A DNA stretch of 32,000 nucleotides from the NCBI GenBank assembly GCA_038889235.1, contig JAWAHN010000003.1, positions 438,058-470,057 of the forward strand. Reading direction: 5' to 3'. The stretch comes from Candidatus Jordarchaeales archaeon (GTDB taxonomy: Archaea > Asgardarchaeota > Jordiarchaeia > Jordiarchaeales > Freyrarchaeaceae). Below the pieces are notes generated by a model. It was not told the DNA's origin, made no database searches, and worked only from the letters and a program-made list of their open reading frames with translations. Below are positions 2,304 through 31,200 of this stretch, piece by piece (the stretch's first letter is position 1; the number at the start of each line of letters is the position of its first letter). Position numbers and translations under genes: made by a program.

Positions 2304-3623
2304 CTACCGCGCAGTCTTTCTTAGAAGCTCGACCGCCTCGCTGAGGGGTATTTGTTCGTAGCGCTTTTTTTCATCCCTCAGGTAGACTGTCACGGTTCCA
2401 GTTGACTCCTCTTTCTCCCCGACGAATACCAGGGCGCGTATCCCCTTCTTCTCCGAGTACTCAAGCTGCTTCTTGTGGCTTCTCCTCATAAGGTCCACTT
2501 GAGTCTTCAATCCCTCCTTTCGCATCTCTTCAGCAACTTTGCGAGCGTAGCCTTTACACTTCTCATCCAAAGATATGACGAAAACCTGTGTACACGTTTT
2601 CTTTTCGAGGCTGAAAAGCCCCAACTCCAGCCCGGCGTCTATGATCCTCTCAAGCCCTATGCTCACACCCGTCGAGGGAGTCTTAGGACCGCCGTAGCGC
2701 TCTATGAGGTCATCGTATCTTCCTCCTCCCGCCAGTGCGCCTATCCTAGGCTCGTCCACGTAGACTTCAAGTATTGGCCCGGTGTAATAATCTAGCCCCC
2801 TCACCATGCTTAGGTCGAGCACTATGTTGTTCTTGTGACTAGAAAGGTCCATTAGTTCACGCAAGTGTCCGACCGCTGTCCTAACGTTGGCGTTACGCCC
2901 AAATTTGTCCTCCAGCTCGTCGAGCGACTTTTCCGGGTTTCCCGAAACCCCCACGGTCTCCATTATCTTTTCGACCTCAGCTTCCCCCAGCCCTGCCTTG
3001 AGTAGCTCGCCTCTCACCCCACTCTCCCCTATCTTCTCGAGCTTGTCTATAGCTCTGAACACCTCTAAGACTTTCCCTTCACCATAGCGGGAAATGTTGA
3101 ACTCCTCCTCGAATATACCTTTCAAGAGGCGTCTGTCGTTCAGTCTTACTCTGAACTCCTTGTAGCCGAGTGATTCCATCACGTCACACACGACATCGAC
3201 TATCTCAGCGTCAGCTTCAGGGTAGGGTGATCCGACTATGTCCGCATCACACTGCCAGAACTCCCTGTAGCGCCCCTTCTGGGGCCTTTCATGTCTCCAG
3301 ACGCGGCCAATGTGGTACCTTTTGAATGGCAGCGTTGGAGGGTTGCTGGCGACAAACCTGGCAAGGGGCACTGTGAGGTCGTATCTGAGGGCAAGCCACT
3401 CGCCGCTCCACGGGTCCTGGAAGCGGTAGAGAAGCTTGGATTCAACCTCCTCCCCATACTTGCCCTTCAACGTCTCCCAGTACTCTATTGCGGGTGTCTC
3501 CAAAGGGTCGAACCCGTAGCGTTCAAAGACGTCCTCGATCACACTTATAACTCTCTTCCTTAAGAGGAGGACTTCTGGGGGGAAGTCTCTGAAGCCGCGG
3601 GGAATACTATACCTGGTCGACAC
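2304..3623 (-). CDS. hisS: Histidyl-tRNA synthetase
   Basis: PRGFRDF, LRYDLTVP, GRYREFWQCDADIVG, RGLDYYTG, GGGRYDDL, GLERI motifs; GTG start at 3623 after GGAGGTG Shine-Dalgarno. The ORF-track extension to 3788 runs into the tRNA gene and is spurious. Confidence 0.97.
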   Translation of the reverse strand: MSTRYSIPRGFRDFPPEVLLLRKRVISVIEDVFERYGFDPLETPAIEYWETLKGKYGEEVESKLLYRFQDPWSGEWLALRYDLTVPLARFVASNPPTLPFKRYHIGRVWRHERPQKGRYREFWQCDADIVGSPYPEADAEIVDVVCDVMESLGYKEFRVRLNDRRLLKGIFEEEFNISRYGEGKVLEVFRAIDKLEKIGESGVRGELLKAGLGEAEVEKIMETVGVSGNPEKSLDELEDKFGRNANVRTAVGHLRELMDLSSHKNNIVLDLSMVRGLDYYTGPILEVYVDEPRIGALAGGGRYDDLIERYGGPKTPSTGVSIGLERIIDAGLELGLFSLEKKTCTQVFVISLDEKCKGYARKVAEEMRKEGLKTQVDLMRRSHKKQLEYSEKKGIRALVFVGEKEESTGTVTVYLRDEKKRYEQIPLSEAVELLRKTAR

Positions 3624-3693
3624 GGACACCTCCGCACTGACCAGCAGTTTACCGCCTGGAGAACGAGGCGGACTAGTGGAAGTGAAGTATGAG

Positions 3694-3842
3694 GGTGCCG
3701 GGCGGGATTCTCGTGGATTGTATCCAAGTCGAACCCGCGACCTCGGGACTGCATGCACACGTGCTTTGCTGCCCCGACCTGGGTCCACAGTCCCGCGCTG
3801 GTGGGGCTTCCTACAGCTCTCCCAGGCTGAGCTACCGGCACC
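3694..3842 (-). tRNA. tRNA-His(GTG) with encoded G-1, C73 and four predicted introns (3818-3800, 3784-3767, 3765-3749, 3727-3708)
   Basis: Removing 19+18+17+20 nt from 149 nt gives G-GTGCCGG-TA-GCTC-AGCCTGGGA-GAGC-G-CGGGA-CTGTGGA-TCCCG-AGGTC-GCGGG-TTCGACT-CCCGC-CCGGCAC-C (75 nt, all four stems perfectly paired); BHB or BHB-like motifs at each junction; CCA not encoded. Confidence 0.9.
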
Positions 3843-3865
3843 TCAACAAAGAGATAGTCACTTAG

Positions 3866-3880
3866 TTTTTAAAGGTTTTC
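3866..3880 (-). promoter_or_regulatory. BRE/TATA promoter of tRNA-His
   Basis: Minus strand GAAAACC-TTTAAAAA ending 24 nt upstream of the tRNA G-1. Confidence 0.6.
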
Positions 3881-3916
3881 TGCTCTTCGGCGGCTCTGAG
3901 AATGGTCCTGGGAAGC

Positions 3917-4330
3917 TTACGTCCCGTTTTCACGCTTTTCTTTTGAGTTGCCTAGTATGCTCCTAACTTTCTTGACTGTCCCCCTAAGCTTCTGGAGCAT
4001 TAGCCCAAGCTGGTGTTCGGGTATCCCTGCGGCGACCAGTATCACTTGACCAGCTTCCATGGCGATGATGAAGCCCTTGGTCCCGTGTACTATACACTCT
4101 GTCACATCACCCTGGATGAACGCTTTAGAAATAAGGTTGCATGCGGAAAAAAGGCTGAAAGCGCTCTCTAGGGCCTTCTCCGGGTCAGAGTACTTGAGCC
4201 TTTCAACTACCATGTTCCCCGAGAGGTCCAACACTAGGATGTCGACATTTCCTGGGTAGTTCTCGTTCTTCAGGAGAGTATTCAATTTCTCTGCAATCTC
4301 CCTACTTATGGGACTAGCGCGCTCTATCAA
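3917..4330 (-). CDS. Roadblock/LC7 domain protein
   Basis: Pattern ILVLDLSGNMV...TECIVHGTKGFIIAMEAGQVILVAAGIPEHQLGLML fits the roadblock/LC7 (MglB-like) fold; likely TTG start at 4330. Confidence 0.7.
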   Translation of the reverse strand: MIERASPISREIAEKLNTLLKNENYPGNVDILVLDLSGNMVVERLKYSDPEKALESAFSLFSACNLISKAFIQGDVTECIVHGTKGFIIAMEAGQVILVAAGIPEHQLGLMLQKLRGTVKKVRSILGNSKEKRENGT

Positions 4331-6224: not shown

Positions 6225-6812
6225 TTAGAACGCGAGCTGCAACACGTTGTAGTACACTACGTCCCCTTGCCTGTTTACTAAAGCCATCGTGAGCTGCTTC
6301 CTCGTGCTAACTGCGAGCTTGGTGACGCGGTCGAGCTCCTTAAGGTCTATGGGGGTTCCCTCGGTAACAATGTATATGAGGTTCTTCGCCACTTCCTCTC
6401 CAGCCTTGCAACCCCTCGGGTATAACCTGAAGTCTATTCCGCCGCCGAAGCCCTGCTTGACAACATACCCTCTGCTCCTCAAGTCCCTGTAGACGAGGTA
6501 CCGCACCCAGACTTTTGGATCCCTTTTACTGAAGTGCTTCACAAGGTCGCGGAACGCGTACTCCCTCCCTTCTTCGTCCTTAACTATGAGTCTTCCACGC
6601 TCCACAAGTAGCAGGGCTTCAACCGGTGTTAGGTGGAGCTTGCCGTCGCCTTCAAACTCGCCGTAGCTACCTTTCTCGTATATCTTTCTGCCCTCCTCTT
6701 CGCTTACGACAACCTCGTCGTCTCTCAGCAGGCCGGAGAAGACCTCTAGTTCTTCCTCTCCTTCCTCTTTGAAGAATAACCCCTCTTGCTGCTCTTCCCT
6801 TTCTTCCTCCAT
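6225..6812 (-). CDS. endA: tRNA splicing endonuclease subunit, probably the non-catalytic (beta/structural) type
   Basis: LHLTPVEALLL, YLVYRDLRSRGYVVK, DFRLY, STRKQLTMA motifs; the catalytic His position is not His. Confidence 0.85.
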   Translation of the reverse strand: MEEEREEQQEGLFFKEEGEEELEVFSGLLRDDEVVVSEEEGRKIYEKGSYGEFEGDGKLHLTPVEALLLVERGRLIVKDEEGREYAFRDLVKHFSKRDPKVWVRYLVYRDLRSRGYVVKQGFGGGIDFRLYPRGCKAGEEVAKNLIYIVTEGTPIDLKELDRVTKLAVSTRKQLTMALVNRQGDVVYYNVLQLAF

Positions 6813-25236: not shown

Positions 25237-25272
25237 CTTTCAATCCCCACTTGTTGGGACTGTTTTTGTTTC
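25237..25272 (-). CRISPR. Degenerate terminal (trailer) CRISPR repeat, isolated from the rest of the array by a 3,025-bp insert
   Basis: ctttcaatccccacttgttgggactgtttttgtttc: 34/36 identical to the array consensus. Confidence 0.93.
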
Positions 25273-28297: not shown

Positions 28298-31200
28298 CTT
28301 TCAATCCCCATTTGTGGGGACTGTTTTTGTTTCTTTTGGGGTCCCGGCTGAGGACCCCTCGGAGGAAGACTTCTTTCAATCCCCATTTGTGGGGACTGTT
28401 TTTGTTTCTTGGACGAGTTGACAAACGTCCAGAGGGAGGACGTCTTATCTTTCAATCCCCATTTGTGGGGACTGTTTTTGTTTCATAATATACATCACGA
28501 CGGCACGGGAACCAAAGGTTTCCGCTTTCAATCCCCATTTGTGGGGACTGTTTTTGTTTCTTTTGAACCCGTCCCTCGCGAACACCCATCGGAAGACCTG
28601 ACCTTTCAATCCCCATTTGTGGGGACTGTTTTTGTTTCGAGAAGGTGGTGCTGTTACCACCTGAAAATCGAACCGCTAAACTTTCAATCCCCATTTGTGG
28701 GGACTGTTTTTGTTTCTGGGAGGCGGCCAAGGCCATAGCCGAAATGGTGGAAAACTTTCAATCCCCATTTGTGGGGACTGTTTTTGTTTCCCGTTGCCAT
28801 GGTGTTTCCTCGTGGACTAGTGAAGTGTACTTTCAATCCCCATTTGTGGGGACTGTTTTTGTTTCTCGAAATGTTGGTTCCGGAGTCAGCTTCAATCTTC
28901 ACTCTTTCAATCCCCATTTGTGGGGACTGTTTTTGTTTCACGCGGTATTTCTGAGGCAAAGCGGCAGGTGGTACATTTTCTTTCAATCCCCATTTGTGGG
29001 GACTGTTTTTGTTTCTCCACGTGTTCGGGGTTGGAAGCACGATTACAATGCACCCTTTCAATCCCCATTTGTGGGGACTGTTTTTGTTTCCCAACATCTC
29101 AAATGTGCTCGAAGACGCCGCCAAGAACCACCTTTCAATCCCCATTTGTGGGGACTGTTTTTGTTTCCCCCTAACTCCCCCATTTTATTACTTGTTTCAA
29201 GAAGCCGCTTTCAATCCCCATTTGTGGGGACTGTTTTTGTTTCGCGGAGGCAAAGCCTCGCGAAGGCGGCGAACTTCCTCTGCTTCACTTTCAATCCCCA
29301 TTTGTGGGGACTGTTTTTGTTTCTAGTCGACGAACTCGCGGAAGACGCCGCGCCTTAAGAGGTCTTTCAATCCCCATTTGTGGGGACTGTTTTTGTTTCT
29401 AAACGCAAAAGCTTCATCCACACCTCTATGCTCTCCTTTCAATCCCCATTTGTGGGGACTGTTTTTGTTTCACAAGATAGTAGTCGAGCGACCCAGCGGG
29501 ATCAAATTTACCTTTCAATCCCCATTTGTGGGGACTGTTTTTGTTTCGATTGAAAGTTCTCATCCCGCGGGGCTCTGATCCCCAGCCATGAAACTTTCAA
29601 TCCCCATTTGTGGGGACTGTTTTTGTTTCAGCAGATAAAAGAGCTTGAGAAGGCCATCAGGCAGAACTTTCAATCCCCATTTGTGGGGACTGTTTTTGTT
29701 TCCAGAGAAAGCACCGCGCTCTCCGGCCTCTTCTTCAACCCTTTCAATCCCCATTTGTGGGGACTGTTTTTGTTTCTGCAAAGTCCTCTGGCACGTCTGA
29801 AGAGATGACCTTGTTCCACTTTCAATCCCCATTTGTGGGGACTGTTTTTGTTTCGGGAGGCTGTTGAGAAGTTGAAGAAAACCATTGAAAGTGTCTTTCA
29901 ATCCCCATTTGTGGGGACTGTTTTTGTTTCTGAACGAAAAAGACTGGGCACCTATCATAATGTATCACTTAGCTTTCAATCCCCATTTGTGGGGACTGTT
30001 TTTGTTTCCTAGGACACGCTAACCCAAAACCCGAAAGCCGCCTCTGAGCTTTCAATCCCCATTTGTGGGGACTGTTTTTGTTTCAAGAGATACCGGTGTA
30101 TCCTCCGGGTATAGGCGGAATATGCTTTCAATCCCCATTTGTGGGGACTGTTTTTGTTTCCCCGGACCCGGTCACTTGCAGGACCCTGAAGCATATCTCT
30201 TTCAATCCCCATTTGTGGGGACTGTTTTTGTTTCTAGTAACTTGAACGCCGACATGGTTGACGGAAAACACTCACACTTTCAATCCCCATTTGTGGGGAC
30301 TGTTTTTGTTTCTTGCGTGTTCGAGTTCAAAACAACGCGGAAGTTCACGCTTTCAATCCCCATTTGTGGGGACTGTTTTTGTTTCAACATCGTCCGCGAG
30401 ATAATTGAAATTATTAAAGAAATCTTTCAATCCCCATTTGTGGGGACTGTTTTTGTTTCCCATCCACCTCCAGCGATAACAGTGAAAACCCTAATAACTT
30501 TCAATCCCCATTTGTGGGGACTGTTTTTGTTTCGCGCGTTCCTACACGGCTACCCGACGAGCAGGGACTTCACCTTTCAATCCCCATTTGTGGGGACTGT
30601 TTTTGTTTCCGAAATCCTCTTCCGCGGGATCTCTGCTATATTTTCCAACTTTCAATCCCCATTTGTGGGGGACTGTTTTTGTTTCATGTAAAAGTGCGGC
30701 AGATTACCGGTCCGGGGGAAAACTTTCAATCCCCATTTGTGGGGGACTGTTTTTGTTTCTTTCGGGTCCGTGATCAGAACCGAGAGGAGCGGTGTCTCTT
30801 TCAATCCCCATTTGTGGGGGACTGTTTTTGTTTCTGCTAGCAACCATTTCAAATCTAAAAGGGCTACCAACTGACTTTCAATCCCCATTTGTGGGGGACT
30901 GTTTTTGTTTCTTTAACAAACGATCTCGTGTGGGGAAGCATTCCCCACTGGGTCTTTCAATCCCCATTTGTGGGGGACTGTTTTTGTTTCAGGCTCCGAT
31001 GTCGCCGAGTATCCCGGAATAGGCGGTGGCTTTCAATCCCCATTTGTGGGGGACTGTTTTTGTTTCGAGCAAGACGTAAAAAAACAAAGGGAAGCTGATC
31101 AAGAAGCCTTTCAATCCCCATTTGTGGGGGACTGTTTTTGTTTCGATTCTCGTCTCGGCGCTGAACAAGCAGAGGGAGAAGTACACTTTCAATCCCCATT

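Follow-up and report, generated by a model that had tools for sequence, protein, structure and literature searches.

Twintrons, in which one intron lies within another and the two are removed in order, are known from the group II and group III introns of the Euglena plastid. Among archaeal tRNAs, the nested multi-intron pre-tRNAs of the Crenarchaeota (Thermoproteales) are spliced sequentially according to the available part of PMC3978253, which cites Sugahara 2007 RNA and Tocchini-Valentini 2009 PNAS. In the Asgard lineage considered here 92–95% of tRNA genes are interrupted, as stated in the accessible part of PMC11291895, and the accessible text of preprint 10.64898/2026.10.13.758758 gives a mean of 2.2 inserts per tRNA gene with up to five in one gene. 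Nested, adjacent or sequential introns did not turn up in a word search of the accessible preprint text, nor are they or a splicing order described in the passages of PMC11291895 that were searched. As far as the same text goes, the census in the preprint counts inserts of at least 10 nt, so that a composite block of 35 nt would be scored there as one. Published tables for Freyarchaeia and Atabeyarchaeia already list tRNA genes with four introns. For a complete Freyarchaeia genome the published tRNA table has no tRNA-His row, and the tRNA-His row of Atabeyarchaeia-1 contains two introns 3 nt apart which are listed without comment.

Here we describe a tRNA-His(GTG) gene of a hot-spring Asgard archaeon (Jordarchaeia) in which two of four predicted introns, designated A and B, appear to flank a single exon base. 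In the literature searched we found no published one-base exon between two BHB introns and no intron motif that borrows a strand of another intron. The gene resembles other tRNA genes of the same and sister lineages, where most genes have at least two introns and some up to 4–5, located in the D-arm, anticodon and T-loop, and where standard finders miss many of them (PMC11291895 and preprint 10.64898/2026.10.13.758758, both as far as accessible). It is also like the crenarchaeal nested pre-tRNAs, as these are described in the available part of the source, in that one pre-tRNA carries several BHB introns, the last BHB would be completed only after another intron has been removed, and EndA and a ligase would do the work. 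It is unlike them in belonging to an Asgard (Jordarchaeia) lineage and in having introns at 37/38 and 38/39 around one exon base. A further difference is that the exon-side strands of the intron predicted to be removed first come from the other intron, which holds for the part of the source available; a similar layout could be drawn in the primary papers.

With the Euglena twintrons the gene would share a hierarchy in which one intron has to leave before the other is spliced correctly. It differs from them in depending on a protein endonuclease rather than on self-splicing ribozymes, and in that intron B lies beside intron A rather than inside it and borrows sequence from it.

Materials and Methods

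The window is the whole stretch of 32,000 nt that was analysed, contig C3:438058-470057 of a 2.14-Mb genome that is 95% complete, and all positions refer to it unless a contig is named. Nine distinct gene variants from two genera were compared, namely that of the own genome (L001), those of four species representatives (L002-L005), one from a metagenome (L034) and three that were reached via the neighbouring gene hisS (L095-L097). An exact 27-nt pattern taken from the 5' exon matched only four species representatives, of which three are hot-spring MAGs named Candidatus Jordarchaeia, Jordarchaeum or Jordarchaeales and the fourth is a mislabelled relative.

Introns were located with a BHB motif scan. 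In comparing orders of splicing a motif was scored as passing when the central helix had at least 3/4 pairs and the outer helix at least 3 bp, together with either an inner helix of at least 3 bp or a complete central helix (4/4). The 5' bulge could be 3 or 4 nt long, as could the 3' bulge in the comparison of four models. A strict motif was taken as a central helix of 4 bp between two 3-nt bulges on opposite strands, with outer and inner helices of 2 bp or more. This criterion was set post hoc, after the data had been seen. ARAGORN intron calls on partly spliced constructs mis-assigned the anticodon as Asp and were left unused.

Results

The unspliced tRNA-His was not detected in the whole window by ARAGORN or by Rfam at the gathering threshold. 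The BHB motif scan found four inserts, at positions 22/23, 37/38, 38/39 and 59/60, and the 75-nt RNA that remained after removal of these four blocks was folded by ARAGORN into a perfect tRNA-His(GTG) cloverleaf in which G-1 pairs with C73. The features of the gene and its surroundings are given in Table 1. The coordinates and letters of a preliminary description of this DNA were all exact when read on the minus strand. In a BLAST comparison exon 2 matched an intron-less tRNA-His of another Asgard family exactly. The D-stem intron has a motif with 4/4 central pairs, an inner helix of 3 bp and an outer helix of 1 bp by motif scan, and it is missing from the second genus (L005, L034); the motif of the T-loop intron was strict in each of the five species first compared (5/5). 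The anticodon-arm stretch predicted for the mature tRNA with A38 is CTGTGGATCCCG.

Table 1. Features of the tRNA-His locus and neighbouring genes, in window coordinates.
Feature	Position	Strand	Description
hisS (histidyl-tRNA synthetase)	2304..3629	-	Pfam PF13393 + PF03129; start codon uncertain; ~65 nt downstream of tRNA-His, same strand
tRNA-His(GTG) gene	3694..3842	-	149 nt, 75 nt when spliced; G-1 = 3842, discriminator C73 = 3694
Exon 5	3694..3707	-	positions 60-73
Intron 4, T-loop 59/60	3708..3727	-	20 nt; strict hBHBh' gcggg TTCG [AC|T] tggat..atcca CGAG [AA|T] cccgc
Exon 4	3728..3748	-	positions 39-59, TCCCGAGGTCGCGGGTTCGAC; T39 = 3748
Second GCAG, 3' end of B	3749..3752	-	pairs with CTGT (3787-3790) and extends the stem to a 9-bp helix; competing fold predicted by RNAfold
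Intron B, 38/39	3749..3765	-	17 nt, AGCACGTGTGCATGCAG; inner hairpin GCA (3764-3762)/TGC (3757-3755), central strand ATGC (3754-3751), bulge AG|T
One-base exon, A38	3766	-	between the canonical cut sites of the intron A and B motifs
Intron A, canonical 37/38	3767..3784	-	18 nt, ACCCAGGTCGGGGCAGCA; from BHB motif scan
TCGGG inside intron A	3773..3777	-	copies 5' strand of anticodon stem; pairs with CCCGA (3747-3743) as outer helix of B
Exon 2	3785..3799	-	positions 23-37, AGCGCGGGACTGTGG; anticodon GTG at 3788-3786; G37 = 3785
Intron 1, D-stem 22/23	3800..3818	-	19 nt; TGGG [AG|A] gct..agc CCCA [CC|A]
Exon 1	3819..3842	-	G-1 to G22
TATA-box-like element	3866..3873	-	TTTAAAAA; ~24-31 nt upstream of G-1; predicted from sequence alone
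EndA paralogue	6225..6812	-	195 aa; PF01974 + PF02778; 2.4 kb from tRNA-His

Genome-wide, ARAGORN returned 14 tRNA genes, nearly all of them intron-bearing, and the Rfam tRNA model gave 12 above threshold; most tRNA genes of this genome are hidden by multiple introns. This is in line with the published picture of a lineage whose tRNA genes are nearly all interrupted. A tRNA-Gln candidate was noted on contig C1:988589-988715 (minus strand), with the motif CGCT [GA|T] tggattcct..aggagtccg AGCG [AA|A], an inner helix of 9 bp, no outer helix and a G at the U33 site. It may be another case in which a neighbouring intron must be removed first.

In the motif of intron A the strand CTGT (3790-3787) forms 4/4 central pairs with GCAG (3772-3769), the bulges are GG|A and CA|A, and an inner helix of 3 bp is made by CCC (3783-3781) with GGG (3775-3773). 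The outer helix has 0 bp with intron B present, being set 17 nt away from the 3' bulge in the primary transcript, and 5 bp (cggga/tcccg) once B is removed, which gives a strict hBHBh' motif. Intron A is then a textbook case of a canonical 37/38 intron, from which it differs in the primary transcript by this displacement. It had been proposed that the BHB of A forms only after B is removed, and this was found to apply to the outer helix but not to the central helix, both bulges and the inner helix, which can form with B in place.

The motif of intron B reads tcggg GCAG [CAA|A] gca..tgc ATGC [AG|T] cccga and is in this gene of the relaxed class, having 3/4 pairs and a G.A mismatch in its central helix, one 4-nt and one 3-nt bulge, an outer helix of 5 bp and an inner helix of 3 bp. 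Its outer helix is made of intron-A sequence and exon bases 40-44. The GCAG strand is shared by the motifs of A and B and the two are therefore mutually exclusive in time. Both motifs were reproduced by the BHB scan, in keeping with the preliminary view that the 35-nt block is composite and that A38 is the only exon base between its two parts. Since intron A itself starts with A, sequence alone cannot tell which A (3784 or 3766) is kept, and deletion of 3784-3767 or of 3783-3766 leaves an identical product; the one-base exon is assigned because the canonical rule puts the cut after the second base of the bulge. Its definition is clearest in L005 and L034, whose A and B motifs are both strict, with cuts at TA|A and AA|G.

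The layout with A and B was present in 9/9 variants, all of which carry both introns, and no relative with intron A alone was found among the variants collected. Removal of a downstream piece B of 13-20 nt left a strict A motif with A38 in every variant (9/9), with 4 central, 5 outer and 2-5 inner base pairs, and this occurred at one internal point per variant or, in L005, at two. The base that follows H3'-xA was A throughout the nine variants. The same anticodon arm, CGGGA-CTGTGGA-TCCCG with A38, occurs in an intron-less tRNA-His of another Asgard family (L061-L066). In an alignment of six variants 97.7% of the cells in the anticodon stem, both helices of A and the hairpin of B were paired and 5 pairs were changed on both sides, compared with 32-47% pairing when, as a control, the alignment was slid by 1-3 columns. 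The inner hairpin of B showed compensatory changes among the relatives. The central helix of A has ACGG rather than GCAG as its 3' strand in L097, and the pairing with CTGT is kept. Because the pairs are conserved with compensatory changes, and because L097 has kept its pairing, these comparisons indicate that the internal A motif is real and under selection, and a single 35-nt intron would not need it.

The copy of the anticodon stem within intron A was observed to track the exon stem. A CGGGA/TCCCG stem goes with TCGGG, which pairs with CCCGA, and a CAGGA/TCCTG stem goes with TCAGG or CAGG (L003, L005, L034), TCAGG pairing with CCTGA. This makes sense only if the copy pairs with the exon. 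The G-to-A change in the copy of L003 costs the inner helix of A one pair and keeps the pairing with exon T42. The exons of six variants (species representatives and metagenomes) differ only at one D-loop position, by a compensatory change in the anticodon stem, at V-loop 44 and at T-loop 59, and L096 and L097 have a few further differences in the D-arm and T-loop.

No tRNA-His was found in the sister family f2 (Freyarchaeia-like) by BLAST with the gene, by three patterns, by BLAST with the intron-less tRNA-His or by hisS synteny. Members of this family (L092, L093, L094) have a conserved element, TACGGTGGCTGGAGCTGACYGTTTCCACA ... CTTCCAGCC, with a long stem, ~60-160 nt upstream of hisS; it sits where Jordarchaeaceae carry tRNA-His and is not tRNA-like.

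In the model in which B leaves the primary transcript first and the 5' strands of its motif come from the 3' half of intron A, the motif passed in 8/9 variants. It was strict in two (L005, L034; (t)cagg CAGT [AA|G] .. GCTG [AA|T] cctg(a)), relaxed in six including the own gene, and failed in L097. After removal of A it passed in 0/9, and the earlier claim that the motif of B is built from intron A sequence was thereby upheld. Shuffled B sequences passed the post-hoc criterion in 1.5-6.5% of trials and A and B shuffled together in 0.03-0.5%, and placements of the same length elsewhere within the gene gave 0-1 passes per ~100. Together with the recurrence of the layout in nine variants from two genera, the shuffling results speak for more than chance. 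The relatives have no common pairing register for B, and with two registers the best consensus of the B conformer had 63.9% or 79.5% of cells paired. A single intron at 38/39 with its 5' cut after A3784 was also considered and had a motif in 0/9 variants. When the whole genome was scanned for this architecture (stem, central helix, bulge, extra insert, stem, T-arm), control sequences gave as many matches as the real genome or more, which makes the scan uninformative.

RNAfold gave energies of -14.0 kcal/mol for the A conformer and -12.0 kcal/mol for the B conformer at 37 °C, and at 75 °C both stood at ~-1.1 kcal/mol. For the own precursor the predicted minimum-energy fold was a third structure, at -20.8 kcal/mol at 37 °C, in which CTGT pairs with the second GCAG. 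This competing fold masks the motifs of both A and B; the second GCAG is limited to the own genome and its closest relative L095 (94% HisRS) and is absent in the other species. Minimum-energy structures predicted by RNAfold varied between the relatives and did not discriminate the models.

In metatranscriptome X6, 0 of ~12.9 million raw reads sampled (~3% of the run) fell on the locus, and X7 also gave nothing. RNA library X4, a sediment metatranscriptome, yielded a 1.5-kb contig on which the locus of a related strain is unspliced; this contig could represent DNA or precursor. Compared with window positions 3580-3960 this strain has 1 substitution in the 149-nt gene (at 3813, in the loop of the D-arm intron) versus 13 substitutions and 11 deleted bases across 232 bases of flanking sequence.

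Ordered splicing in which B is removed before A is the reading that we prefer, at a probability of roughly 0.6, the cut sites, the order and the enzymes all being predictions. The preliminary description had held that splicing must go B then A. This order is indeed the best reading, given a B motif that is present in the precursor of eight variants and in none of the nine once A is gone, but "must" is too strong because the B motif is relaxed, L097 fails, there is no single register and the minimum-energy fold is a third one. We think it unlikely that there are two introns without an obligate order, in which cleavage of A, or of its 5' site, comes first or follows no set order and B is then released through a very relaxed motif, a bulge-helix-loop or some feature outside the scan model. 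The formation of the central helix, both bulges and the inner helix of A with B present would permit this, as would the irregular precursor motif of B in most relatives and its failure in L097, and RNAfold favours the A-type junction in L003 and L004. Heteromeric EndA enzymes are moreover broad in specificity and accept half-motifs, so that the 5' site of A might be cut early. However, once A has been removed the central helix at the boundaries of B is limited to 3/4 pairs, some of them G.U wobbles, an uninterrupted outer helix is absent, and none of the nine variants has an acceptable motif (0/9); the tracking of the exon change by the stem copy in intron A is sensible only if that copy is paired with the exon.

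Excision of the whole 35-nt block (3784-3750) in one step appears quite improbable. Its 5' site would be GG|A and its 3' site would lie in cggga CTGT [GG|A] .. GCAT [GCA|G] tcccg, giving G38 in the product, and a relaxed motif with 3/4 central pairs and the full 5-bp outer helix does exist at those boundaries in 7/9 variants. According to the available part of PMC3978253 most canonical archaeal introns use relaxed hBH forms. The block motif, however, needs a 4-nt bulge, has no inner helix, leans on G.U pairs and falls to 2/4 central pairs in L005 and L034, and it passed in 0/9 variants. One-step excision also leaves the perfectly conserved internal strict motif (H3'-xA-A and the covarying inner helix) unexplained. 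The base before T39 is G in L001 and L095, C in L004 and A in the remaining variants, and one-step excision would thus leave a variable position 38 (G, A or C) in the otherwise nearly invariant exons of close relatives. A decaying pseudogene with motifs around B that arose by chance is very hard to credit. Standard tRNA finders do miss the gene, yet it is the sole tRNA-His-like locus of the 95%-complete genome, its exons are near-invariant across the variants apart from compensatory and a few loop changes, its position beside hisS is conserved, and between the two strains compared above the gene has stayed nearly unchanged while its flanks have not.

The genome contains two PF01974 (EndA) genes and one PF01139 (RtcB) gene. 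The EndA of catalytic type is on contig C1 (1056473-1056727) and is closest to crenarchaeal catalytic subunits. The paralogue in the window has a Val aligned to the residue that we take to be the catalytic His of M. jannaschii EndA and is probably a non-catalytic (structural) subunit of a heteromeric endonuclease. Two EndA copies, one of them without the catalytic His, fit a heteromeric enzyme of broad specificity.

The pairing of tRNA-His with hisS was kept in 8/8 relatives checked, and since no T-run separates the two genes in the window they may be co-transcribed. The closest non-Jordarchaeia homologues of the HisRS are from Thermoproteota at ~59% identity, the HisRS of the sister family being 34-35% identical, a pattern which hints at horizontal transfer. 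The window also contains a CRISPR array at 28298-30599 (minus strand) of 31 identical repeats with the core CAGTCCCCACAAATGGGGATTGAAAG and a spacing of ~75 nt, and a degenerate copy at 25237-25262.

Discussion

We propose that TCGGG-GCAG, which makes up the 3' half of intron A, takes the part of the 5' exon in the precursor. The TCGGG would pair with exon bases 40-44 and GCA(G) with the (A)TGC at the end of B, and together with the hairpin of B this would make a BHB-like motif. EndA would cut after A38 (3766) and before T39 (3748), freeing B, and RtcB would ligate A38 to T39. This ligation would bring the anticodon stem beside the CTGT/GCAG helix and so complete the strict hBHBh' of A, which would then be cut by EndA at G37|A and CA|A, with RtcB joining G37 to A38. 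Since the GCAG strand is shared and the two motifs are exclusive, the one-base exon would never be released alone. The outer helix that A lacks in the primary transcript would be the feature that holds A back, and the reverse order would strand B in the anticodon loop without a motif.

Intron B can on this proposal be regarded as an intron-dependent intron, the exon half of its motif being supplied by a copy of the anticodon stem in A. A second intron could in this way have settled at 38/39, where the mature tRNA has no usable motif, and the one-base-exon layout would have been kept family-wide; we regard the arguments for and against this interpretation as evenly balanced. That B was inserted into a gene which already contained an intron would be a logical reading of its history. 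The case of A and B is a refinement and not a new mechanism, because ordered removal of nested BHB introns has already been published.

The layout explains why standard finders miss tRNA-His in this lineage, as ARAGORN and Rfam did here and as the Freyarchaeia table without tRNA-His illustrates. At 149 nt the gene is a compact test substrate, since its two folds exclude each other and should set the sequence of four cuts and two ligations, with a single-base exon among the parts to be joined. Interest in it is likely to be moderate and to lie with specialists in tRNA splicing and with annotators of Asgard genomes. The finding bears on the build-up of tRNA introns in Asgard archaea, since if a resident intron can supply a motif strand, the number of possible sites grows with the intron load. 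If intron-dependent introns were general in Jordarchaeia, introns would open sites for more introns, which would help to explain the runaway intron load of these organisms.
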